A stretch of 64,000 nt of DNA, taken from positions 2,625-66,624 of the forward strand of contig JBARFA010000005.1 in NCBI GenBank assembly GCA_049796755.1, in the 5' to 3' direction. Shown here piece after piece: positions 2,688-34,292 of the stretch (the first letter of the stretch is position 1; the number at the start of each line of letters is the position of its first letter). The notes beneath the pieces were generated by a model. The model was not told where the DNA came from. It did no database searches and saw only the letters and a program-made list of their open reading frames with translations. The translations under genes were made by a program, and so were the position numbers. Source of the stretch: Acidobacteriaceae bacterium (GTDB lineage: Bacteria > Acidobacteriota > Terriglobia > Terriglobales > Acidobacteriaceae).

Positions 2688-3821
2688 CTACACTTTGCGA
2701 GCGGCCTTCAGCAGGCGATCGCGAATGGCCGCACCCAGGCCTGAATCGGCCGGCAATGGGCACAGAATGATCTGCGCTCCCATGGCGTCCAGCGTTCGCA
2801 GTCCAGCAAAGAGGCGCTGTGCCAACTCCTGATCATCCTCCCAGTTTCCCCAGGCAAAGTGAATGCCGCTAAATCCGTCGGGCAACGGCCATTCCGCAGG
2901 GAGGAGGACGCCAATTTTCTGCGCGGTGTCTAACTGTTCCTGCACCGCGTGCAGCCAGAGCTTCCGGCGAGTGTTTTCCGTGTGCTCGCTTATATCCAGC
3001 AGAACGACGCCGGCGTTGGGCGCGTAGTGGCGCATGTCCACGCCCGGGGATGGCAAGGATTCCGGTGGCATCGCACCGGTTTTGGCCGATCGATAGAGGA
3101 CCAATGGCCCGGCAATGGATTCAATTTCCTCTGCGGGGATGGCACCCGGTCGATAGAGAATGAATTCGTGATCGCGAACTTCAATCACCGTCGACTCCAC
3201 GCCGCACCAGGCGGGACCGCTATCCAGCACCAGATCGATGCGGCCGTCGAGGTCCTCCAACACATGCTGCGCGGTGGTGGGGCTGGTATGGCCGAAGCGA
3301 TTGGCGCTGGGCGCCGCGATGGGAAGATTGGCCGCATCGATGAGCGCCAGCGCCACCGGATGGGCAGGCATGCGAACGCCAACGAGTTCGCGGCCAGCGG
3401 TCACAACTGAAGGCACGGCTGGCTGCTTCGGTAAAAGGATGGTCAATGGGCCGGGCCAGAATTGGTCCATGAGTGCATCGATTTTTTGCTGCGCATTTCC
3501 TGGCACGCGAATCGTGATTTTCGCCAACATATCGCGATCGGATATGTGGACGATCATGGGATCCCAGGAGGGCCGCTGCTTGGCGAGAAAAATCTTTTCC
3601 ACAGCAGCTGGATTGAGCGCGTTTGCACCCAGGCCATACACCGTCTCTGTAGGAAACGCCACGGTACCGCCGGAACGAATGACTTCCGCAGCCTGGGAAA
3701 GAGCGGTTTGCGCGGCTACGGACGAGGTGGAATCGGCAGAAATCTCCAGCCGGATTGTTTTGTTAGGGATCATAACGGTTTGTAAAAGCTGCGTGCGCCC
3801 CGCTGGCCTTCCGTCTTTCAT
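2688..3821 (-). CDS. tsaC: L-threonylcarbamoyladenylate synthase (Sua5/YrdC plus Sua5 C-terminal domain)
   Basis: YrdC-fold signature VAFPTETVYGLGANA plus SANRFGHTSPTTA. The 377-aa length fits the long Sua5 type. Confidence 0.85.
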   Translation of the reverse strand: MKDGRPAGRTQLLQTVMIPNKTIRLEISADSTSSVAAQTALSQAAEVIRSGGTVAFPTETVYGLGANALNPAAVEKIFLAKQRPSWDPMIVHISDRDMLAKITIRVPGNAQQKIDALMDQFWPGPLTILLPKQPAVPSVVTAGRELVGVRMPAHPVALALIDAANLPIAAPSANRFGHTSPTTAQHVLEDLDGRIDLVLDSGPAWCGVESTVIEVRDHEFILYRPGAIPAEEIESIAGPLVLYRSAKTGAMPPESLPSPGVDMRHYAPNAGVVLLDISEHTENTRRKLWLHAVQEQLDTAQKIGVLLPAEWPLPDGFSGIHFAWGNWEDDQELAQRLFAGLRTLDAMGAQIILCPLPADSGLGAAIRDRLLKAARKV

Positions 3822-23976: not shown

Positions 23977-24738
23977 CTAGATGCCTTCGCCCATACTCAC
24001 GTAATCTGACCGCGGATATTGCTGGCTGCGATAGCGCGTGCGTTCTTCTTCTTCCACGGCGAGCGCGCTTTCAGGATCTGTCAACAAGGTTTGCTGCAGC
24101 TGGCCATCCAGGAGCTCCACGCGAGATTTCAGACGCTTCACTTCGTCACAGAGAGCGACGATCACATCCGATAATGGATCATTGATTTCGCGTGGATCGG
24201 TAATTAACACGCGTTTGCCGCCTTGATACACGATGTGCGCTGGAACACCGACGACGGTCGAATCCGGTGGCACGTCGCGCAGCACGACGGAGCCGGCACC
24301 CACGCGAGAATGCTCTCCAATGGTGATATCGCCAAGGATGTTGGCATTGTTGCCGACAAACACTCCATCGCGAAGGGTCGGATGGCGCTTTCCGGTGCCC
24401 TTTCCGGTACCGCCGAGCGTCACACCCTGATAGAGCGTCACGTCGTCCCCAATGATTGCCGTCTGGCCAATCACCACGCCGATGCCGTGATCGATAAACA
24501 GTCGTCGGCCGATCTGCGCCTCTGGATGGATCTCAATTCCCGTCCAGAAACGGGTGACTTGCGACATCAGTCGAGGCAGCAGACGCCAGCCATGCGACCA
24601 AAGCCTGTGATGGATGCGATGGGCCCACACGGCGTGCAGGCCCGGATAGCACAGCAGCACCATCGCCTTCGAGGTAGCCGCAGGGTCGCGCTCGAACACG
24701 CAGCGAACGTCTTCGCGAATCAATCGAACCAGATTCAT
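23977..24738 (-). CDS. cysE: serine O-acetyltransferase
   Basis: N-terminal SATase helical domain ([30 protein letters not shown]), IHPEAQIG, and left-handed beta-helix hexapeptide repeats. Confidence 0.9.
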
Positions 24739-24759
24739 AGAAGCGGTCTCATGACCGCG

Positions 24760-25731
24760 TCATACCGTCACGGCGGATGTTTTGGTTTCCATGGCCTCTT
24801 TGCGGAACTCGTCGAACAACACGGTCGACAGGTATCGCTCGCCGCCGCTGGGAATGATGACAACGATCAACTTTCCCGCGTTCTTCGGGTTCTTCGCCAC
24901 CTGGATCGCGGCATGGACCGCCGCTCCGGAGGAGATGCCAACCAGCAGGCCTTCTTCCTTCGGCAACCGACGCGCCATGGCAATAGCTTCGTCGTTTGTG
25001 ACCTGAACGATCTCGTCAATCAGATCGGTCTTCAGCACCTTGGGAACGAATCCAGCGCCAATTCCCTGGATTTTGTGCGGCCCGGGTTTGCCTCCGGAAA
25101 GCACAGGACTGTCGGCGGGCTCGACAGCGACCGTCCAGAAGCCAGGTTTTTTTGCCTTGATATATTCGCTGACGCCGGTCAGGGTTCCACCGGTACCGAC
25201 TCCGGAAATAAGGATATCGGCTTTGCCATCGGTGTCGTTCCAGATCTCCGGGCCGGTGGTATCGAAGTGAATCTTCGGGTTCGCAGGATTGTTAAATTGC
25301 TGCAGCATATAGCCGTTCGGAGTCTCTTTCAGAATCTCTTCTGCCTTGGCGACGGCGCCCTTTACGCCGCTCGGGCCGGGAGTCAGGACAATTTTCGCGC
25401 CAAACGTCAGCAACAGGATTCTGCGTTCCAGGCTCATCGTATCCGGCATGGTCAGGATGATGTCGTAGCCCTTGACCGCAGCAACAAATGCTAGCGCAAT
25501 GCCGGTATTGCCGCTCGTGGGCTCAATCAACACGGTTTTTCCGGGAGCAATCTTTCCTTCCCGCTCGGCCGCCTCAATCATGGCCAGGCCAATGCGGTCT
25601 TTCACGCTGCTCAGCGGGTTCTGGCTCTCCAGCTTTACCACCACTCTCGCCTTGCTGCCTTCGGTCACATGATGCAACTCCACCAGAGGAGTACGTCCAA
25701 TCAGATCCGTTACGCTTGCGGCAATATTCAT
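24760..25731 (-). CDS. cysK: cysteine synthase A (O-acetylserine sulfhydrylase)
   Basis: PLP-lysine motif [16 protein letters not shown], and [10 protein letters not shown]. Located 21 nt upstream of cysE. Confidence 0.9.
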
Positions 25732-25787
25732 GGTCGGTCCTTTCTACAGTCCTAGATAACAAAAGCATACCGTTTTTTGAGTTGGGC

Positions 25788-25803
25788 CGTGACGCACGTC
25801 ACG
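25788..25803. promoter_or_regulatory. Crp/Fnr-type palindrome between cysK and the 2OG oxygenase gene
   Basis: CGTGACGCACGTCACG, that is GTGAC-N4-GTCAC with perfect arms. It is centred about 65 nt from both divergent start codons. Confidence 0.45.
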
Positions 25804-25861
25804 GAGGAATGTGCGCCGGAGTGAGACCGTATTCCTGAGTGCCTGCTTTCGGAGGTTGGGT

Positions 25862-26590
25862 ATGACCTATCTCGACTCGGGACATATCGAGTCTCTTTCC
25901 CCGGAAAAGTTCCGTACGCGGAAGCCCTATCCCTGGATCAGTATTCCGGCTGCATTGACGGCAGAAGGCTTTGAGCGCTTGCGCAACGCCATGCCCGATG
26001 TGGAGAAGTTCGACCGCAAGGTCGGGATCAAACGAGGGTACGGACAAGCTCCGCATGATCGCTACATTCTGCATTACAGGACGGGCATCGAATTGCCGGA
26101 ACCATGGAAGGAATTTGTCGCTGAGCTGCAAGGCAATGCCTACCAGTCCTGGCTGCGAAGGATGCTGGGTCCGCAGCAGTTTATTTTGACGATGGAGTGG
26201 TATTACGCGTGGCAAGGATGCTCCGTCTCCCCACACTGTGATGCACGACGCAAGCTGGCAACCCACATTTTTTACTTCAATACGGACGAGGACTGGGATG
26301 AAAACTGGGGTGGCCAGATCCTGATGATGGATGACGAGGGCCGCTGCAAGCCGCATTCCGCACCGGCCTTCGACGATCTGAAAGTGGCCGCTTCGCTGGT
26401 TCCGCGCGGAAATGAGAGCCTGTTTTTTCAACGGACTGATCATTCCTGGCACGGCGTCCGGCCTTTGGAATGCCCATCCAACAGCCTGCGAAAGCTCTTT
26501 ATTGTGACCGTGAACGTGCCTACATTTCAGGTGTGGTGGAGGCGCGTTCGCGGGAAAGATCCCGACGGATACCGGATGGGAGCGGCGTGA
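25862..26590 (+). CDS. 2OG-Fe(II) oxygenase superfamily protein
   Basis: HxD (SPHCD) plus a distal His (SWHGV) in a jelly-roll-like context. I chose the ATG at 25862 (GGAGG upstream). The longest ORF starts with GTG at 25811. Confidence 0.65.
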   Translation: MTYLDSGHIESLSPEKFRTRKPYPWISIPAALTAEGFERLRNAMPDVEKFDRKVGIKRGYGQAPHDRYILHYRTGIELPEPWKEFVAELQGNAYQSWLRRMLGPQQFILTMEWYYAWQGCSVSPHCDARRKLATHIFYFNTDEDWDENWGGQILMMDDEGRCKPHSAPAFDDLKVAASLVPRGNESLFFQRTDHSWHGVRPLECPSNSLRKLFIVTVNVPTFQVWWRRVRGKDPDGYRMGAA

Positions 26591-26701
26591 AAGTTTGAAA
26601 GCCGGGCGCGACCGGAGCTGCAAAGTGAAAAGCACTTCCACCGCTTGGGATAACGACTGGCGGTGAATCTTAGAATCCGAAGCAAAGAAAGCGGTCCTTA
26701 T

Positions 26702-27196
26702 ATGTCATCCACAGAAACAATCCAGGTTCCATCGAAAACCCACACGCCAGTCAGCAAAAAGGCCATCACAGAGCCGCGCGTGCTGAACGAAGCTTTCGAA
26801 TACGCCAAGCCATCGTCGTTCTCCCGCGGGCTGCGGCTGGACATCAAAGGCGTCACCATCCTGCTGATTTCAGGCACCGCGAGCATCGATGAGTTTGGAA
26901 AAACCGTGCATGTCGGGGATTTTGGCGCACAAATGGCCCGTACCCTGCACAACATCACTGGCCTGCTGGCTGCCGAAGGCGCTACCTGGAAGGATGTTGT
27001 GCGGACAAGCTGCTATTTGCGCGATATCGAGCGAGATTACGACGAGTTCAACCAGATACGGACGCAGTTCTTTCGGGAACAAGGGCTGAACCCTTTGCCC
27101 GCCTCCACGGGGATCCAGGCAATTCTTTGCCGCCCTGATCTGCTGATTGAGATTGAGGCGATGGTCATGTTCGAGACCGATCACTCAGCACAATAG
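26702..27196 (+). CDS. RidA/YjgF family protein
   Basis: YjgF-like pattern ILLISGTASID ... VVRTSCYLRDI ... PASTGIQA ... LIEIEAMV. I chose the ATG at 26702. Confidence 0.7.
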   Translation: MSSTETIQVPSKTHTPVSKKAITEPRVLNEAFEYAKPSSFSRGLRLDIKGVTILLISGTASIDEFGKTVHVGDFGAQMARTLHNITGLLAAEGATWKDVVRTSCYLRDIERDYDEFNQIRTQFFREQGLNPLPASTGIQAILCRPDLLIEIEAMVMFETDHSAQ

Positions 27197-27292
27197 TCGG
27201 CTTACCGAGGAAAAAACTCGCCTGAGAAACTCCACGCTGGGATCGAAAAAAGATGCGATGCCTGGCGTCGCGGGGGCATTCCAGCCGACATA

Positions 27293-27320
27293 TTGAAATT
27301 GGGAAATCGTCGGCTAGAAT
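27293..27320 (+). promoter_or_regulatory. sigma70-like promoter for the CHASE3 kinase gene
   Basis: TTGAAA, 16-nt spacer, TAGAAT. It lies inside the longest ORF (start 27253), which supports the ATG at 27349 as the true start. Confidence 0.45.
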
Positions 27321-27348
27321 AGTTCGGAAGGATCAGCCCCTCGGACTT

Positions 27349-29118
27349 ATGCAAAACTTTTATAAACGTGCCGGAGTCCTGACTGGTTTTGTCTTATTGC
27401 TGCTCATCCTGATTGCGAACGCGTTCGTCACGCGGCGGCAACTTGCTGTGCAGGTTGCCAACCAATCCTGGGTGCTGCACTCACGACAGGTCCTTTTCGA
27501 GCTGAGCCAGATCGAGTCGCTGCTGAAAGATGCGGAAACTGGCCAACGAGGATTCCTGTATACCGGCCAGCCGTTGTACCTGCGACCCTACAATCTCGCG
27601 CTAACACAGATTGAACCGCACCTGCGCAATCTTTCTCAACTGACCGCCGATAATCGGCGTCAACAAGCGAACATTTCTCAGCTGCGTGGCTTGACGCAGA
27701 AGAAGCTGAACGAACTCGCCCAAACCATCCTGCTATATAAATCGGGACAAACCCAACAGGCAAAAGCGCTGGTCCTGTCGGATTATGGCCTGGCGACGAT
27801 GGACAAAATTCGACAGCTGACGAATCAGATGATGCAGGAAGAAACGTCACTGGAACAAGCGCGCATGGCCGCGTACCGGCGCAGTGTGCGCTCCACGATT
27901 CTTTCCATTTACTTCGCCACCATATTGGCGGCATTGGGTCTGCTGTTGCTGGGCTATCGGATTCTGCGGGAAATGGATCTTCGCGAGAAACATGGCGCTG
28001 AAATTCGAGAACGCGAGGAGTGGTTCCGAGTCACGCTGACCAGCATCGGTGATGCCGTGATTGCCACGGACAAGCAGGGGACCGTCACGTTTGTGAATCC
28101 TGTAGCCGCGCAGTTGACTGGAACCAGCTTTGCGCAGGCCAAAGGTAGGCCGATCCAGGAGATCTTTCCGATCTTCCATGAGTACACCCACCAGGTGAGC
28201 GAAAATCCTGTGAAGAAGGTGCTGGAGCAAGGAAAGATCGTGGGACTGGCGAATCATACCGTGCTGCAGCACAGAGACGGCTCGCTGACTCCGATTGAGG
28301 ACAGTGCGGCGCCGATCCGTAGCGATAGCGGAGATGTGGTTGGAGTCGTCCTCGTGTTTCGAGATGCGACCTATCATCGGAAATCGCAGGAAGTCCTTCG
28401 CAAAGCGGAGAAGCTCGCGGCAGCGGCGCGATTGGCAGCGACGGTGGCGCACGAGATCAACAATCCGCTGGAAGCTGTCGGCAACCTGATTTACCTGGCA
28501 AAGGCGGCTCCGCAAATGCCGACAGAAGCCATGCAGCAGCTGACGATGGCAGAGCAGGAATTAGCACGCGTATCACATCTGACACGGCAAACCCTCGGAT
28601 TCTATCGAGAGTCGAGCTCCGCCGTATCGGTGGAGGTTCCCGCGCTGATCGAGTCTGTGCTCGCTCTCTACTCCAACAAGTTCAATACGAAAAATATTAC
28701 GGTGGTGCGGGATTTTGGCGAATGCCCGCCGATTCAGGTGGTGCGCGGGGAGATGAATCAGGTAGTCGCCAACCTGATCTCCAATGCCGCCGATGCGGTC
28801 GCACACAATGGCGTGATTACCATTCGCCTGGCCTGCAAGCAAAGTACCGACGGACCCGTGGTACATCTGGCTGTGGAAGACGATGGCCCAGGAGTCACGG
28901 AAGAGAACGCGCAGCGCATCTTTGAACCGTTCTTTACTACCAAAAAAGACGTAGGGACGGGGTTGGGACTTTGGGTAGTGAAAGAAATTGTTGAACGCCA
29001 CGGAGGCGCGGTTGTAGTGAATTCGCACAACGGCAACGGCTCGCGCGGCGCCACCTTCACCGTGCAGTTACCCTGCAATACAGGGGCAGCAGTTGCAGAG
29101 GAAGAAGCTTCCGCGTAA
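27349..29118 (+). CDS. sensor histidine kinase (CHASE3-PAS-HisKA-HATPase)
   Basis: TM segment plus a CHASE3-like periplasmic helix bundle (ETGQRGFLYTG), a second TM segment, PAS (FRVTLTSIGDAVIATD), H-box VAHEINNPL, N-box and G-boxes (DDGPGV, GTGLGL). Confidence 0.85.
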   Translation: MQNFYKRAGVLTGFVLLLLILIANAFVTRRQLAVQVANQSWVLHSRQVLFELSQIESLLKDAETGQRGFLYTGQPLYLRPYNLALTQIEPHLRNLSQLTADNRRQQANISQLRGLTQKKLNELAQTILLYKSGQTQQAKALVLSDYGLATMDKIRQLTNQMMQEETSLEQARMAAYRRSVRSTILSIYFATILAALGLLLLGYRILREMDLREKHGAEIREREEWFRVTLTSIGDAVIATDKQGTVTFVNPVAAQLTGTSFAQAKGRPIQEIFPIFHEYTHQVSENPVKKVLEQGKIVGLANHTVLQHRDGSLTPIEDSAAPIRSDSGDVVGVVLVFRDATYHRKSQEVLRKAEKLAAAARLAATVAHEINNPLEAVGNLIYLAKAAPQMPTEAMQQLTMAEQELARVSHLTRQTLGFYRESSSAVSVEVPALIESVLALYSNKFNTKNITVVRDFGECPPIQVVRGEMNQVVANLISNAADAVAHNGVITIRLACKQSTDGPVVHLAVEDDGPGVTEENAQRIFEPFFTTKKDVGTGLGLWVVKEIVERHGGAVVVNSHNGNGSRGATFTVQLPCNTGAAVAEEEASA

Positions 29119-29156
29119 TTGGCACTAGGGTGTTAGAACGGCGAAAGACTGCCGTT

Positions 29157-30299
29157 TCACCGATAGGATTGGATGGCACGATCCAGATCGGCCAGCAAAT
29201 CTTCCTCGTCTTCAATTCCGACAGAAATGCGCACGAGGTCTTTTGGCAGGTCACGCTGCGACATCAACTCCACCGGAACGCTCGCGTGCGACATGTTTCC
29301 GGGCACGCTGATGGAAGAGTTGACGCTGCCGAAGCTGACGGTGATGCGGAACAGCTTGGCATTTTCCGCGATCGCTTTTGAGAGCGCGACAGAACCGGTC
29401 GTGAAGCTCAAGACTGCGCCCGAGCCACGCGCCTGAGAATGCTGCAACTCATACCCGGCATCGCTTTTCAATCCGGGATAGCAGACTCTTTGTATCGCTT
29501 TGTGCCTGCTGAGATATTCCGCAATGGCTTGGGCGTTTTTTTGCTGACAATCGAGGCGCAGCTTTAATGTCTTCATGCCACGCAACAGCAGATAGCAATC
29601 GAACGGCGCAAGCGCGTTTCCTTCCGCATTCTGGACAAAATAAATTTGCTCGGCGAGCGCCTTGTCTTTGACGACGATGGATCCAGCGGTGACGTCATGG
29701 TGTCCGCCGAGAAACTTTGTTCCCGAATGCAGAACCACATCTGCTCCCAGGTCAAGCGGGTTCTGCAGGTAGGGCGACATGCTGCTATTGTCGACGCAAA
29801 ATAATGCACCGTGAGCCTGCGCCATGGCAGCGAGTTTGCGCAGATCCACCACGCGCAGCAAAGGATTGGTCGGCGACTCGACGTAGATCATTTTTGTTTT
29901 CGGAGTGATCTGTCGCTCGAAATTTTCGAGATCGCACGCGTCTGCATATTTGGCGGAGATGCCGGTCCGCTTCAGCACCTTGGTAAACAGGCGGCAGGTG
30001 CCACCATACAAATCGTTGTCGGCAAGAATTTCTTCACCGTTCTGCAGCAATTTGGTCGCGGTGGTGATCGCGGCCATGCCGCTGGAGAAACAATATCCAT
30101 GAGTTCCGTTTTCCAGCGATGCAATTTGCGTTTCGACCACCGCACGAGTCGGATTGCCGCTGCGCGAATAATCGTACTCGCCGAACTGATCGGAATATTC
30201 CTGCTCGAACGTTGCGGTCTGATAGATCGGTGTGGAGATGGGCCGGAAGCGATCTCCTGGAGCGGGATCGAAGCTGACCAGGCGGCTAGCGATTTTCAT
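29157..30299 (-). CDS. Cys/Met-metabolism PLP enzyme, cystathionine beta-lyase-like
   Basis: YDYSRSGNPTR, SSGMAAI, and a PLP-Lys region HSGTKFLGGH. I chose the ATG at 30299, which overlaps the upstream gene's stop by 14 nt. The longest ORF starts at 30422. Confidence 0.85.
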   Translation of the reverse strand: MKIASRLVSFDPAPGDRFRPISTPIYQTATFEQEYSDQFGEYDYSRSGNPTRAVVETQIASLENGTHGYCFSSGMAAITTATKLLQNGEEILADNDLYGGTCRLFTKVLKRTGISAKYADACDLENFERQITPKTKMIYVESPTNPLLRVVDLRKLAAMAQAHGALFCVDNSSMSPYLQNPLDLGADVVLHSGTKFLGGHHDVTAGSIVVKDKALAEQIYFVQNAEGNALAPFDCYLLLRGMKTLKLRLDCQQKNAQAIAEYLSRHKAIQRVCYPGLKSDAGYELQHSQARGSGAVLSFTTGSVALSKAIAENAKLFRITVSFGSVNSSISVPGNMSHASVPVELMSQRDLPKDLVRISVGIEDEEDLLADLDRAIQSYR

Positions 30300-31626
30300 G
30301 GCCACCCTCTTTCTCCTGCACGCTACATCCAGCAGCTGCCATCGCCTGCTCCAGATCGCGGATGATATCTTGCGGCGCTTCCAGTCCGACGGAGAGTCGA
30401 ACCAAACTATCGGTGATGCCAAGCTTACGGCGCAACTCAGGGTCCAGATCGGCGTGCGTTGTTGAAGATGGATGCGTGATCAGAGTTTCCAAACCTCCCA
30501 GACTTTCGGCGCGCGAGCAGAGCTGCACTTGATTCAGCATGCGAATTGTGGCGTCGTATCCAGCCTTCAACTCAAATGCGATCATGCCGCCAGCCGCTCC
30601 CTGTTGCTTTTCTGCTAAAGATTTTTGCGGACACGATTGCAGACCGGGATAATACACTCGCGCCACTGCCGGATTGCTTTCCAGCCATTCAGCAATGACC
30701 TGCGCGTTTTCGCAGTGGAGTTTCAACCGCGCGGGCAACGTCTTCATTCCCTGCAACGCCAACCATGCTTCGAACGGAGCCTGCGTGGTGCCGATGGTCT
30801 TGCGGATCAAACGAAATCGCTCCAGCAGCTTCTCATCCCGTGTGGCCAACGAGCCGCCAACGGTTGCATTGTGACCGTCGATGTATTTCGTCGTTGATAA
30901 GAGAGAAATGTCTGCGCCTAGTTGGAGGACGTTCTGCAAGACCGGCGTCAAGAATGTGTTGTCGACTGCCAGCAAAATCGAATGGCGCTTGGTGATCTCG
31001 GCAACCGCGGCAATATCCGAAAGCTTCAGCGTTGGATTGCCCGGCGTCTCCAGGAAAACGATGCGAGTCGCAGGAGTGATTGCCGCTTCAACATTGCCCG
31101 GATCGGATGTGTCCACGAACGACGCGGTGATGCCGAGATGATCCAGGACTTCGCGAAACAGGCGCATGGTCCCGCCGTACACAACATCGGTCAATACGGC
31201 GTGATCGCCGGACTTCAACACGGAGAGAAACAGCGTGGTCACTGCGGCCATGCCTGTGCGAAAACAAACTACCGTCGGGGTTCCTTCCAGCGCGCCAATC
31301 GCCTTTTCCAACGCGTCGACGGTGGGGTTCGACACGCGCGAGTAGCTAAATCCTTTGTCGACGCCGACTGCATCGTGCACGAAGGTACTGGTCTGGTAGA
31401 GAGGAAACAGGATCGAGCTGGCGTGGGAATCCAGCGATCGTCCGCCATGAATCGCGACGGTAGAAATGTCCAAATCTGGTGAGCTCAAAACGCAATCTCC
31501 ATTAGGGCTATGCAATGGTTCCTGGGAGAAACTGGCCGTGGCGGGAACTCCCCAGGCGGCTACCAGAATGAAGATTGAGCGGGATAACTCAGACTTCTGA
31601 AGCTGGCCTGCGACCACCTGGGGCAC
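30286..31626 (-). CDS. Cys/Met-metabolism PLP enzyme, cystathionine gamma-synthase/gamma-lyase-like (start uncertain)
   Basis: YSRVSNPT, RTGMAAV and STTKYIDGH. The GTG start at 31626 gives a hydrophobic N-terminal extension; a shorter start near 31490 is possible. Confidence 0.85.
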   Translation of the reverse strand: MPQVVAGQLQKSELSRSIFILVAAWGVPATASFSQEPLHSPNGDCVLSSPDLDISTVAIHGGRSLDSHASSILFPLYQTSTFVHDAVGVDKGFSYSRVSNPTVDALEKAIGALEGTPTVVCFRTGMAAVTTLFLSVLKSGDHAVLTDVVYGGTMRLFREVLDHLGITASFVDTSDPGNVEAAITPATRIVFLETPGNPTLKLSDIAAVAEITKRHSILLAVDNTFLTPVLQNVLQLGADISLLSTTKYIDGHNATVGGSLATRDEKLLERFRLIRKTIGTTQAPFEAWLALQGMKTLPARLKLHCENAQVIAEWLESNPAVARVYYPGLQSCPQKSLAEKQQGAAGGMIAFELKAGYDATIRMLNQVQLCSRAESLGGLETLITHPSSTTHADLDPELRRKLGITDSLVRLSVGLEAPQDIIRDLEQAMAAAGCSVQEKEGGHENR

Positions 31627-31768: not shown

Positions 31769-32335
31769 ATGCTGCTGAAGATTGTTGCTGTTGGACATCC
31801 CGTATTGCGGCAAACGGCGCGTGCACTCACGCCCAAAGAGATTCGCAGCCCAGAGATCAAAGACCTGATTGAGCATATGCGTGAGACTCTGCGAGACGCA
31901 CCCGGAGTTGGATTGGCAGCGCCGCAGATTGGTCAGTCCTTAAACTTGGCGGTGATTGAAGATCGTGCGGAATATCACAAGGCGGCGACGGAAGCGGAAT
32001 TGAAGGAGAGGGAACGCGTGCCCATCGACTTCCACGCGCTGATTAATCCGCAGATTGAATTGCTTTCCGACTCGCAGGTTTCTTTTTTTGAAGGCTGCCT
32101 GAGCCTTCCGGGATTTATGGCGGAGGTTCCGCGCTCGCGCTCGGTTCGTGTCACCTGTCTCGACCACCATGGCAAGTCTCGAGTGATTGAAGCGAAGGGA
32201 TGGTACGCTCGCATTTTGCAGCATGAGATCGATCATTTGCATGGGAAGATTTACATCGATCGCATGCGAAGCCAGACGTTTTCCACGCTGGATAACTACC
32301 AGCGCCACTGGAAGAATCGCGCACCCGATCATTGA
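31769..32335 (+). CDS. def: peptide deformylase
   Basis: The three PDF motifs are present: GVGLAAPQIG, EGCLS and HEIDHL. Confidence 0.9.
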   Translation: MLLKIVAVGHPVLRQTARALTPKEIRSPEIKDLIEHMRETLRDAPGVGLAAPQIGQSLNLAVIEDRAEYHKAATEAELKERERVPIDFHALINPQIELLSDSQVSFFEGCLSLPGFMAEVPRSRSVRVTCLDHHGKSRVIEAKGWYARILQHEIDHLHGKIYIDRMRSQTFSTLDNYQRHWKNRAPDH

Positions 32336-32409: not shown

Positions 32410-32439
32410 TTGACAATATTTTGTTGCGGCCTCTATGCT
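32410..32439 (+). promoter_or_regulatory. sigma70-like promoter about 200 nt upstream of tRNA-Cys
   Basis: TTGACA (32410-32415), 18-nt spacer, TATGCT (32434-32439). I found no better promoter-like sequence closer to the tRNA. Confidence 0.45.
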
Positions 32440-32482
32440 CGATTTCAAGAGGCAGCCACACCGCTTCCGAAAGTTTTCGCCA

Positions 32483-32551
32483 ATGATGAACATCGCTCCA
32501 GCCCGCCGCTGTCTATGCTGTTGCTGCAGCTATATGCGGGTGTGTCCATGA
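32483..32551 (+). CDS. candidate 22-codon poly-cysteine leader ORF (MMNIAPARRCLCCCCSYMRVCP)
   Basis: Read directly from sequence: ATGATG ... TGT CTA TGC TGT TGC TGC ... TGT CCA TGA. It has 6 Cys in 22 codons. There is no obvious Shine-Dalgarno sequence. Confidence 0.3.
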   Translation: MMNIAPARRCLCCCCSYMRVCP

Positions 32552-32578
32552 GCGAATCGATCTAAAACAATTTCGCGC

Positions 32579-32635
32579 AACCATGGAAACCCACCTGCCG
32601 TAGATTGGCCGAGTGGGTTTTTCGTTTGCATGGTT
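32579..32635 (+). terminator. compound terminator-like hairpin in the tRNA-Cys leader
   Basis: Core stem GAAACCCAC (32586-32594) / GTGGGTTTT (32613-32621) followed by TCGTTT. An outer helix AACCATG / CATGGTT encloses it. The loop is long (18 nt, with an internal GCC/GGC pairing). Confidence 0.4.
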
Positions 32636-32644
32636 CAACCAAGA

Positions 32645-32720
32645 GCACCGGTGGTGAAGTGGCTAACGCGCTGGTCTGCAAAACCAGTATTCGCGGGTTC
32701 GATTCCCGCCCGGTGCTCCA
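32645..32720 (+). tRNA. tRNA-Cys (anticodon GCA)
   Basis: Hand-folded cloverleaf. Acceptor GCACCGG/CCGGTGC; D-arm with an A13-A22 mismatch; anticodon stem CTGGT/ACCAG with loop CTGCAAA; T-arm GCGGG-TTCGATT-CCCGC; discriminator U73; encoded CCA. Confidence 0.9.
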
Positions 32721-32801
32721 TACATCTCATTCGCCTAGATCCCGAGTATCCATTGCCTTGGGGCAGGTTTCAACGTTAGCCTGAGTCGGAGGGGCCAACG
32801 A

Positions 32802-34292
32802 ATGCGCTTTCATTTCCGCGATTTTCTTTTCCCAGTCCTGTTCGGTTTTATCCTGGTCGCCGCCAGCTCTCCGCTGGTGAATGCGCAATCGCAATCGAAG
32901 CCTCCAGATTTGCACGGAGCTTATCGATTTGAGCGGGCCAATTGGGTTTATGTCCACCTGCAGGGCACGCCGCACCAGATTGGCTTTGAAAACGGATATT
33001 TGTTGGCACCCGAGATTGAGGATGGCTTTCATGCCATTCAGCTGGAAGACACGCATAACACGCATCGCAACTGGGAGTTTTATCGGACGACCGCTAAGGA
33101 TGTTTACTGGCCGCACATTGAAGCCGAGTATCGCGAAGAATTACAGGGAATTGCGGACGGCCTGAAGGCCCACGGCATTACCGACATGGACATCTGGGAC
33201 GTGGTCGCGGTGAACGGCTTCAATGAGACCGACGAATATTACATCCCCTATCTCGAAAGCAAAGGACATCCAACCGCCCTTGCAAGCTTGAGCCCACGCG
33301 GGCGTTGCAGCGCCTTTGTTGCCACAGGGGATTGGACGCGCGACCACAAGCCGGTTATTGCTCATAGCCTGTGGAGTCCATTTCTTGAAGGCGAGCGTTG
33401 GCGCATCATGTATGACATTGTTCCGCAACATGGCTATCGAATTTTGATGGATGGCTGGCCGGGCAAGATCGACAGCGGCGACGATTTCGGAATCAACTCC
33501 GCCGGAATCGCCATTACAGAAACCACGATCAGCGGTTTCCATGGGTTCGATCCCAATGGTGTGCCGGAATTTGTCCGTGCGCGCAAGGCCATGCAGTATT
33601 CGTCGAATATCGACGACTTCGAACGCCTGATGGTGACGGGAAATAACGGTGGTTATGCCAACGATTGGCTGATCGCGGATAACCATACCGGAGAAATCGC
33701 CCGTCTGGAACTGGGACTGAAAATCCATCGCCTTTGGCGCACCAAGAACGGCTACTTTGTGGGTTCCAATTTTCCCAGCGATCCGACACTCACCCGGGAA
33801 GAGACCACATTTGATCCCAACGATGCGAGCAACACCGCGAACGCGCGGCACAAACGGTGGGACGAATTGATGGCGCAATACAAGGGCCAGATCGACGTTC
33901 CGCTGGCGCAAAAGTTTTTAGCCGATCACCTTGACGCCTATACCGGGAAGTGGGGACCGGATGAACGCACATTGTGTGGACATGAAGACGTCTCCCCACG
34001 TGGCGTTGCAATATGGGGTGACCCGCCTTTTGAACCGGGTGGCGCGGCCAATGCCAAAGCGGCCGACAGTTCGATGATTAGCAAAATGTCGTTTATGGCG
34101 CGAACCAATCGGCCTTGTGGCGAGCCATTTCTTGTCAAACCGTTTCTGGCGAAGCATCCTGAATTCGCATGGGAGAAGCCGGTGCTGCGGGATATGCAGG
34201 GAACTCCGTGGGCCATGTTTCGGGCGAATGATCATGCTTCATCCACTGCGGCGAAAACGGGCAACGTCCACGCGAACGTCGGCGGAAATTGA
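32802..34292 (+). CDS. phospholipase B-like (PLBD/LAMA family) Ntn-hydrolase, secreted
   Basis: Signal peptide, candidate nucleophile in RGRCSAFVA, and GWPGKIDSGDDFGINSAGIAITETTI, which closely resembles the SGDDF...ETT block of eukaryotic PLBD proteins. Confidence 0.7.
   Translation: MRFHFRDFLFPVLFGFILVAASSPLVNAQSQSKPPDLHGAYRFERANWVYVHLQGTPHQIGFENGYLLAPEIEDGFHAIQLEDTHNTHRNWEFYRTTAKDVYWPHIEAEYREELQGIADGLKAHGITDMDIWDVVAVNGFNETDEYYIPYLESKGHPTALASLSPRGRCSAFVATGDWTRDHKPVIAHSLWSPFLEGERWRIMYDIVPQHGYRILMDGWPGKIDSGDDFGINSAGIAITETTISGFHGFDPNGVPEFVRARKAMQYSSNIDDFERLMVTGNNGGYANDWLIADNHTGEIARLELGLKIHRLWRTKNGYFVGSNFPSDPTLTREETTFDPNDASNTANARHKRWDELMAQYKGQIDVPLAQKFLADHLDAYTGKWGPDERTLCGHEDVSPRGVAIWGDPPFEPGGAANAKAADSSMISKMSFMARTNRPCGEPFLVKPFLAKHPEFAWEKPVLRDMQGTPWAMFRANDHASSTAAKTGNVHANVGGN

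Follow-up and report, generated by a model that had tools for sequence, protein, structure and literature searches.

A poly-cysteine leader with a terminator ahead of a tRNA-Cys gene: a probable Cys-responsive attenuator kept across Acidobacteriaceae

Can a bacterial tRNA gene be controlled by the supply of charged tRNA of its own family? The question is raised by a locus in an Acidobacteriaceae bacterium (assembly GCA_049796755.1, contig JBARFA010000005.1), of which we analysed a contiguous stretch of 64,000 nucleotides (nt), positions 2,625 to 66,624 of the contig, hereafter called the window. Between def and a tRNA-Cys(GCA) gene, the sole tRNA gene within the 64-kb window, lie a promoter, a short open reading frame (ORF) with a run of Cys codons, and a hairpin followed by a T-tract. 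An initial annotation had proposed that the tRNA is read through this leader and that the leader is a Cys attenuator of the his/trp type. Sequence comparison supports this proposal, as different genera of soil Acidobacteriaceae keep the ORF with its Cys run as well as the terminator and the proposed antiterminator; positions 32410-32644 probably constitute a ribosome-mediated transcription attenuator of the trp/his type, which would read the supply of charged Cys-tRNA and gate the tRNA gene, an isodecoder designated tRNA-Cys B. The elements of the locus, in order along the window, are:

End at 32335: def, upstream of the leader spacer, from Pfam
32410-32439, plus strand: promoter found by the promoter scan, with -35 box TTGACA (32410-32415), an 18-nt spacer and -10 box TATGCT (32434-32439)
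32483-32551, plus strand: leader ORF of 22 codons, MMNIAPARRCLCCCCSYMRVCP, stop codon TGA at 32549-32551, from the ORF list
32501-32506, plus strand: region 1, GCCCGC, predicted to pair with region 2 into a 1:2 'protector' hairpin that encloses the Cys codons
32510-32527, plus strand: proposed stall codons, TGT (codon 10) and TGC TGT TGC TGC (codons 12-15)
32536-32550, plus strand: region 2, GCGGGTG (32536-32542) and TCCATG (32545-32550), overlapping the last ORF codons and the stop
32552-32576, plus strand: small spacer hairpin, GCGAA (32552-32556) with TTCGC (32572-32576), nested within the putative antiterminator
32582-32598, plus strand: region 3, CATGGAAACCCACCTGC, which pairs with region 2 in the putative antiterminator and with region 4 in the terminator
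32586-32621, plus strand: terminator hairpin 3:4, lower stem GAAACCCACC/GGTGGGTTTT with A32612 bulged, upper stem GCC/GGC
32618-32627, plus strand: U-tract, TTTTTCGTTT
32628-32644, plus strand: junction and tRNA 5' leader, GCATGGTTCAACCAAGA
32645-32720, plus strand: tRNA-Cys(GCA), isodecoder 'B', acceptor stem GCACCGG..., CCA encoded, Rfam tRNA score 63.9 bits

The promoter lies where the initial annotation had placed it; with 10/12 matches it is the top-scoring plus-strand site of the region, and transcription is predicted to start near 32446. The ORF list likewise returns the 22-codon ORF with its six Cys codons (32510-32512, 32516-32527 and 32543-32545), four of them consecutive; an upstream extension to 38 codons from the ATG at 32435 was rejected, as that ATG sits inside the -10 box. 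The hairpin, described as a compound one, had to be revised in part. Its core (AAACCCAC(C) at 32587-32595 with (G)GTGGGTTT at 32611/13-20) and the T-tract that follows, ending at 32627, were recovered, the window spacer displaying AAACCCACC/GGTGGGTTT and then TTTTTCGTTT; the outer AACCAT/ATGGTT stem (32579-32584 with 32630-32635) is not kept in relatives. The distance of 9 nt to the tRNA had been counted from this outer stem, whereas 17 nt separate the end of the T-tract from the tRNA. The free energy (dG) of the window terminator hairpin is about -18 kcal/mol; a strict terminator scan did not flag it, because its loop exceeds 8 nt, and flagged the shorter-loop version at locus L002. The tRNA-Cys(GCA) announced downstream of the hairpin is present and was the only Rfam match in this region. 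Taken alone, the leader region of the window is not statistically remarkable, and it is the comparison with other genomes that decides the case.

Homologous copies were collected by a def-anchored scan with one genome per species, which gave 44 loci, 13 of them with a tRNA-Cys downstream of def; by a metagenome scan with a pattern derived from the hairpin, which gave five more copies, all with tRNA-Cys downstream and one duplicating L003; and by a search anchored on a peroxiredoxin gene found in some of these loci, after which gene neighbourhoods were fetched. The resulting 27 non-redundant copies comprise the window, 12 def-anchored genome loci, four new metagenome loci and ten peroxiredoxin-anchored loci. 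They come from at least five Acidobacteriaceae lineages, including Paracidobacterium, Acidicapsa, Granulicella and Silvibacterium. In seven def-anchored loci, the spacer aligns with that of the window over its full length, from the promoter through the ORF and the post-stop segment to the hairpin and T-tail; the product of the window def is itself 94% identical to those of several metagenome-assembled genomes (MAGs) of Acidobacteriota.

All 27 copies keep the promoter as TTGACA-N17/18-TAnnnT with a variable spacer sequence, and all 27 keep an ATG-started ORF of 21-27 codons with its stop; the initial annotation had named loss of the ORF in relatives as an outcome that would speak against it, and the opposite was found. 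Every copy contains 3-7 consecutive Cys codons, the remainder of the peptide being different, and a spacing of 21 nt separates this run from the stop in 20 of the 27. Indels in the ORF are multiples of three that add Cys codons, one in L013 (MTKFAPSRHSMCCCCCSCVRACP) and three in L015 (MIQFAPTRCCMCCCCCCCSRARVCP). The stop is separated from the terminator by 24-42 nt, and the tail after the hairpin is T-rich in nearly all 27 copies, with a variable sequence that is weakest in L059 (TCTTCTGCTG). Two features of the leader are restricted to some lineages. The ORF ends with Pro-UGA in the window and its close relatives (CCA TGA, 32546-32551 in the window), an ending not seen in the other genera; Pro-UGA is a context of slow termination in Escherichia coli and would keep the ribosome positioned on region 2. 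In the Granulicella-type copies (L052:~2130-2268, L057:~1660-1766 and L059:~1650-1777), a 5' untranslated region (UTR) of about 100 nt separates the -10 box (TACCTT/TAGTTT) from the ORF; it has segments in common, e.g. CACCGC..GGGGCAAAC..GCTCCATG, matches no Rfam family and could be an additional regulatory element.

A conserved short ORF may also be conserved for its product. The mini-ORF could encode a functional Cys-rich micropeptide, for instance a metal-binding or redox-active one, or the RNA of about 175 nt could act in trans, the adjacency of the tRNA being incidental. The unit does have its own promoter and terminator, and some residues other than Cys recur, namely AP.R near the N-terminus in the close relatives of the window and R-V before the stop. 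Against this, the sequence and length of the peptide outside the Cys run vary between genera, the codons of the recurring 'RV', CGGGTG, coincide with region 2 of the RNA structure, and the nucleotide conservation includes third codon positions as well as the untranslated post-stop segment. Moreover, the unit always lies directly upstream of a peroxiredoxin and/or tRNA-Cys gene, on the same strand and with no promoter between. A product acting in its own right is therefore very improbable.

The conserved RNA segments can form the alternative pairings expected of an attenuator. The initial annotation had pointed out that GCGGGTG (32536-32542) is complementary to CACCTGC (32592-32598); this holds, with one G-U pair, and the complementarity extends to TCCATG (32545-32550) with CATGGA (32582-32587). 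Three pairings are predicted, with comparable energies, in all 17 close copies:

1:2 (protector), GCCCGC 32501-32506 with GCGGGT 32536-32541, dG -15 to -28 kcal/mol in the 17 copies
2:3 (antiterminator), GCGGGTG..TCCATG 32536-32550 with CATGGA..CACCTGC 32582-32598, dG -19.6 to -26.7 kcal/mol in the 17 copies
3:4 (terminator), dG -11.7 to -27.8 kcal/mol in the 17 copies

RNAalifold picked the 2:3 pairing unprompted; on the 13 closest copies it returned no compensatory pairs, their divergence being too low. In a 26-sequence alignment, which was fitted to the terminated state, the pairs of this state are 93% standard and nine are changed on both sides, a result reached by 0/500 shuffles. Helix 1 (1:2) is 93.6% paired, with 3/6 pairs changed on both sides, and helix 4 (the terminator) 99.6% paired, with four such pairs; helix 3 (the spacer hairpin) is 80.8% paired with no double-sided change, which is weak support. 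The antiterminator pairing, in the same alignment, is 86.7% paired versus 29-50% in slid controls; a core-pairing shuffle test of the antiterminator was noisy and is not relied on. In Silvibacterium (L053) both terminator arms are 3 nt shorter (AACCCGCC/GGCGGGTT), the clearest matched change, and region 2 reads GCGGGTT instead of GCGGGTG, matching the altered region 3, AACCCGC. The indels of L010, L045, L046 and L049 are confined to the loop and leave the lower stem intact. Altogether, an ORF with a cluster of Cys codons, an intrinsic terminator before the regulated gene and a 1:2 hairpin, which are features of trp/his-type attenuators, are all seen.

A covariance model built on the terminated state finds all copies at E <= 0.012 and 26/27 at E <= 4e-7; it retrieved nothing else convincing and no further match in the window, and no further copy of the leader module was found within the 64 kb. 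A weak match of the model (E = 0.0015) lies at L019:3173-3327 on the minus strand. There, TTGACA-N17-TACGTT is followed by a possible upstream ORF (uORF; VKSFYNTLCCSIVR...) that has a GTG start and contains two Cys codons, by a strong terminator (AGCCTGCTCGCC..GGCGAAGCAGGCTTTTTT) and by a gene for a small membrane protein. This element looks like a different uORF-terminator and may be another Cys-responsive leader.

We infer from the sequence the following course of events, from the transcription start and the translation of the ORF through stalling, the structure switch and the efficiency of termination to co-transcription of the tRNA. The strong promoter would start a transcript whose first feature is the 22-codon ORF with its run of Cys codons. 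Judging from the geometry, region 2 would stay accessible while a ribosome has a codon of the run in its A site, and would be covered by a ribosome at the stop. When Cys-tRNA(Cys) is plentiful, the ribosome would reach the stop and cover region 2 (32536-32550), so that region 3 would pair with region 4 into the terminator and transcription would end at the U-tract, near 32620-32627, giving a terminated transcript of about 175 nt. If the ORF were not translated, region 1 would pair with region 2, and the terminator would form as well. When Cys-tRNA(Cys) is scarce, the ribosome would stall within the Cys run, covering region 1 and freeing region 2, which would then capture region 3 as an antiterminator and let RNA polymerase read on. 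In most Acidobacteriaceae, the read-through transcript would carry a 1-Cys peroxiredoxin gene and then tRNA-Cys B; in the lineage of the window, from which the peroxiredoxin gene was deleted, tRNA-Cys B would be the sole gated product, released by RNase P. Such an arrangement would amount to a feedback loop, extra tRNA-Cys being synthesised as charged tRNA-Cys runs low.

The part played by the peroxiredoxin gene emerges from the architecture of the other copies. In L002, L003, L004, L013 and L015, the promoter, poly-Cys ORF and hairpin directly follow def, and about 60 nt further stands a gene for a 218-residue 1-Cys peroxiredoxin (AhpC-TSA and 1-cysPrx_C domains), with a strong Shine-Dalgarno sequence in front; it is followed by a different GC hairpin and then by the same tRNA-Cys. 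Homologues of this protein with 81-88% identity are encoded in Paracidobacterium acidisoli, Acidicapsa dinghuensis, Granulicella sp. S156, Silvibacterium acidisoli and several MAGs. From one of these peroxiredoxin-anchored loci to the next, the surrounding genes differ considerably, and the order is the same: promoter, 21-27-codon ORF with a Cys run (encoding e.g. MTLNASNSTLICCCCGCCCCGPARVSG, MTRYSPARNCSCCCCCCRTLRVSA or MTMIASTRMCMCCCCRCSSARVVS), GC hairpin with a T-rich tail, peroxiredoxin gene, and tRNA-Cys 48-87 nt past the peroxiredoxin stop. The sole exception is Acidicapsa dinghuensis (L051:2317-4933), where the leader and the peroxiredoxin gene are followed by PALP (cysM-like), JAB (mec-like) and ThiS (cysO-like) genes and by no tRNA-Cys, apparently a CysO-type set for cysteine synthesis under the same poly-Cys leader. 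In all, 14 copies are of the peroxiredoxin type, with the terminator 50-90 nt upstream of the Shine-Dalgarno sequence and gene, and 13 of them then have tRNA-Cys; 12 copies, the window included, lack the peroxiredoxin gene, and the terminator abuts the tRNA. tRNA-Cys B lies downstream in 26/27 modules, in at least five different flanking contexts. A search for a peroxiredoxin homologue elsewhere in the window found none.

Since the cassette made of leader, 1-Cys peroxiredoxin and tRNA-Cys is found in other genera and in other flanking contexts, it is the ancestral form. The window is a derived form produced by in-situ deletion of the peroxiredoxin gene, with junctions just after the T-tail and just before YAACCAAGA; this motif precedes the tRNA in the window and in the peroxiredoxin-type loci alike, which places the deletion endpoint just upstream of it. 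A neighbour-joining tree based on the flanks is star-like, with L006 misplaced, and does not settle deletion versus insertion.

This history suggests another explanation, in which the leader of the window is the vestige of a regulator: the attenuator would have evolved for the peroxiredoxin and would be kept here since its promoter and leaky terminator supply tRNA-Cys B, Cys control of the tRNA having no physiological meaning. That the peroxiredoxin-type cassette is widespread, hence ancestral, fits such a scenario, as does the replacement of a Cys codon of the run by Arg in the tRNA-only copies L001, L007 and L049. The terminators fit it too, since those of the 12 tRNA-only copies, with their bulged A, are weaker (-8.9 to -19.6 versus mostly -19 to -28 kcal/mol in the peroxiredoxin type) and four have lost the upper stem; alternatively, basal read-through may have been adjusted by this weakening once the peroxiredoxin was lost. 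However, a mere promoter could do without the ORF, its Cys run or regions 1 and 2, yet they are kept: among the eight genome loci without peroxiredoxin, leader identity is 86.5%, as compared to 62.5% at the four-fold degenerate sites of def and 48% in the spacer between def and the promoter, the leader thus still being under purifying selection in this group. In addition, the tRNA belongs to the cassette in 13/14 peroxiredoxin-type loci, and so was under the attenuator before the deletion. We consequently regard the vestigial scenario as unlikely.

An attenuator gating the tRNA also implies that the tRNA is transcribed from the leader promoter. The initial annotation had seen no better promoter nearer to the tRNA, and the scans agree in 26/26 loci: no sigma-70-like plus-strand site was found between attenuator and tRNA in the 14 peroxiredoxin-type loci, nor from the ORF start to the tRNA in the 12 tRNA-only loci. 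In the window, TAGATT (32601-32606) was considered as an internal tRNA promoter and rejected, as it is not conserved. The spacer between peroxiredoxin and tRNA always contains a stable GC hairpin (-13 to -36 kcal/mol), lineage-specific in sequence and never followed by a T-run, so that it is not a terminator; it would fit a protector of the mRNA 3' end left after RNase P cleavage. Because the scans find no site between leader and tRNA and because this hairpin lacks a T-run, the leader promoter is the only recognisable promoter of the tRNA in every arrangement.

It could be argued that promoter, mini-ORF and terminator form a self-contained gene for a small RNA or peptide, and that tRNA-Cys B has a promoter of its own, of an unrecognised type. 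Only sigma-70-like consensus sites were scanned, the promoters of Acidobacteria are poorly characterised, and tRNA genes usually have strong promoters of their own, as does the tRNA-Gly/tRNA-Cys A operon described below. But with 17 nt from the U-tract to the tRNA, such a promoter would have to sit inside the hairpin, and there the 12 tRNA-only copies share no conserved TAnnnT or -35-like element. Besides, in the lineages of L008, L009 and L011, where the promoter and the ORF are gone, the tRNA is damaged as well: in L008 (~3660-3700) and L009 (~3660-3710) the gene stops in or ahead of the anticodon loop, and in L011 (3667-3743) its 3' half is replaced. Separate units are, in our opinion, quite improbable. 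As a side observation, tRNA-Cys B looks like a hot spot of integration or rearrangement; L046 and L049 have unrelated DNA downstream of the tRNA in place of the phospholipase-B-like gene that usually stands there, as it does in the window.

What distinguishes tRNA-Cys B from the housekeeping tRNA is apparent in the two lineages where both are seen. In Silvibacterium (complete genome) and Paracidobacterium, about 3 kb away from the cassette, the opposite strand carries a tRNA-Gly(GCC)/tRNA-Cys(GCA) pair with its own consensus-like promoter:

L053:146-372, minus strand: tRNA-Gly/tRNA-Cys A pair, Silvibacterium
L062:4841-5052, minus strand: tRNA-Gly/tRNA-Cys A pair, Paracidobacterium

Between these two organisms, tRNA-Cys A (acceptor stem GGCGCGG...) is identical at 74/75 positions and tRNA-Cys B (GCACCGG...) at 74/76, whereas A and B are identical to each other at only about 52/76 positions (~68%), both having a GCA anticodon and a U discriminator before CCA. 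tRNA-Cys B is thus an old paralogue, maintained separately and accompanying the poly-Cys leader, and the window tRNA-Cys is probably an accessory isodecoder rather than the housekeeping tRNA-Cys. Since B is truncated in L008 and L009, those genomes must have another tRNA-Cys.

Several points weigh against an attenuator gating tRNA-Cys B. The single-sequence fold of 32446-32644 gives z = -0.64, which is uninformative, and the pair counts of the terminated state are inflated by the fitting of the alignment to that structure. The antiterminator displays no significant covariation (two pairs, equalled by 208/500 shuffles). In equilibrium minimum-free-energy folds with ribosome masks, the expected switch is obtained for L005, L007, L012, L047 and L049; with the 'stalled ribosome' mask, the terminator persists in the window and in the peroxiredoxin-type copies, the latter having stronger terminators, so that the switch, if it works, must be kinetic, as in trp. 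The promoter scans cover the sigma-70-like consensus, and promoters of other sigma factors would be missed. The window ORF has no Shine-Dalgarno sequence and a predicted 5' UTR of 37 nt. This last objection is a weak one, because a Shine-Dalgarno-like motif precedes about 44% of the long ORFs of the window (versus a 14% background) and because some homologous leaders are nearly leaderless, with 7-13 nt from the -10 box to the ORF start in L015, L055, L056 and L058; initiation without a Shine-Dalgarno sequence, or leaderless initiation, is plausible for the leader ORF. Finally, the benefit of more tRNA-Cys in true cysteine starvation is not obvious. Extra tRNA-Cys would make more sense if the physiological signal were lost or damaged tRNA-Cys, a charging defect or the oxidation of thiols.

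The peroxiredoxin suggests which of these signals could matter. As it usually contains a single Cys, it could still be made under cysteine scarcity, and its link to the leader suggests that the charging of Cys-tRNA serves as a read-out of thiol or oxidative stress. We lean slightly towards a joint proposal, namely a 'thiol-stress' cassette in which a poly-Cys attenuator would control a 1-Cys peroxiredoxin and a second, anciently diverged tRNA-Cys B apart from the housekeeping A operon, charged Cys-tRNA acting as a proxy for oxidative or thiol stress; in the window, the cassette would be reduced to attenuator and tRNA, leaving the tRNA gene as the sole, self-sensed product. If true, this would be the first inducible, self-sensing tRNA gene. 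A tRNA gene behind an attenuator would show that the level of one isodecoder can be adjusted to the charging of its tRNA family, which bears on an open question: do bacteria regulate their tRNA pools gene by gene, and if so, how? The proposal lends itself to direct testing, since assembled genomes of named species carry the peroxiredoxin-type cassette (Granulicella sp. S156, Silvibacterium acidisoli and Paracidobacterium acidisoli).

The genes on either side of the leader are as follows:

23977-24738, minus strand: hexapeptide/serine acetyltransferase gene (cysE-like), from Pfam
24760-25731, minus strand: PALP gene (cysK-like), from Pfam
29157-30422 and 30286-31626, minus strand: two pyridoxal-phosphate (PLP) enzymes of Cys/Met metabolism, from Pfam; the ORFs overlap as listed and their start codons need refining
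32802-34292, downstream of tRNA-Cys: secreted phospholipase-B-like gene

The first four make up a cluster of sulfur amino-acid genes upstream of def (23977-31626), all identified by Pfam, which bears out the neighbourhood described in the initial annotation; no poly-Cys leader was found before any of them. Between the tRNA and the phospholipase-B-like gene (32721-32801), there is only a weak hairpin (TGCC TTGG GGCA then GGTTTC), and no promoter-like plus-strand site was found; for this reason, the phospholipase-B-like gene might also receive read-through from the leader promoter.

How does the element compare with known systems? The mechanism proposed here is a known one, and the tRNA-gene cargo is unprecedented in the literature that we found. 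The classical leader-peptide transcription attenuators of amino-acid operons are trpL, hisL, leuL, thrL and pheM of E. coli and Salmonella, and pheM-pheST is a precedent for attenuation of a component of the translation apparatus rather than of a biosynthetic enzyme. To our knowledge, the cargoes of leader-peptide attenuation are genes for amino-acid biosynthesis, aminoacyl-tRNA synthetases, transporters and resistance. The leader studied here shares with the classical systems a promoter-proximal short ORF with a codon run for one amino acid, four regions that give 1:2, 2:3 and 3:4 pairings followed by a U-tract, and a stop placed for masking of region 2. It differs in the amino acid that would be sensed, cysteine, in its host, Acidobacteriota, in its cargo, a peroxiredoxin and a tRNA gene (the tRNA alone in the window), and in having no Shine-Dalgarno sequence and no sequence homology to them. 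T-box riboswitches, the usual leaders by which genes of the translation apparatus sense tRNA, bind uncharged tRNA by a specifier loop and the T-box sequence and need no leader ORF, whereas the conserved features here are the ORF and its Cys codons, and Rfam gives no T-box match; none of six leaders submitted to Rfam 15 matched any family, with E-values up to 1-10. Literature searches within the searchable library turned up neither a tRNA gene placed behind a leader-peptide attenuator nor any description of this element in Acidobacteria.

Cys-rich leaders have been described in other phyla, and none of those compared here has a tRNA or peroxiredoxin cargo or an Acidobacteriota host. In mycobacteria, polycysteine small ORFs (sORFs) are leaderless, with consecutive Cys codons at the 5' end of operons (Canestrari et al. 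2020, bioRxiv 10.1101/834739), and ribosome pausing at these codons reports charged tRNA-Cys and de-represses the downstream genes (bioRxiv 10.1101/834739; Rv2334A etc., PMC13096801). The best-studied one acts on translation, and the targets are genes of cysteine metabolism, with no tRNA among them (bioRxiv 10.1101/834739). As cited in PMC13096801, Barth et al. (2021) link tRNA-Cys depletion, Cys attenuators and oxidative-stress responses in these bacteria. An unannotated short ORF, at least two consecutive Cys codons and a link to thiol or redox biology are thus common to both systems. The window ORF, however, is not leaderless (predicted UTR of about 37 nt), only L015, L055, L056 and L058 being nearly so; a terminator with a U-tract stands here 50-90 nt before the peroxiredoxin Shine-Dalgarno sequence or directly before the tRNA; and the cargo is a peroxiredoxin and/or tRNA-Cys, to which only L051 adds cysM- and cysO-like genes. 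Predicted Cys leader peptides also precede cys/cbs operons of Actinobacteria (Seliverstov et al. 2005, PMC1262725), for which the authors found no terminator hairpin and suggested a dependence on Rho; these leaders differ from ours on that account and in their cargo of cysteine biosynthesis genes. Finally, a predicted ribosome-mediated attenuator named uORFC-8-2 precedes cysS in Rhodobacterales; its uORF carries a Cys-Cys pair around codons 14-15, and two stems lead to a terminal U-run (Brewer et al. 2021, PMC8632094). This motif contains two Cys codons instead of 3-7, belongs to alpha-proteobacteria, controls a synthetase instead of a tRNA or peroxiredoxin and has no sequence relation to the leader of the window. 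Yet both would combine a uORF with tandem Cys codons, a terminator stem with a U-run and feedback on a component of the Cys-tRNA(Cys) supply, which by analogy makes uORFC-8-2 the closest known system in logic.

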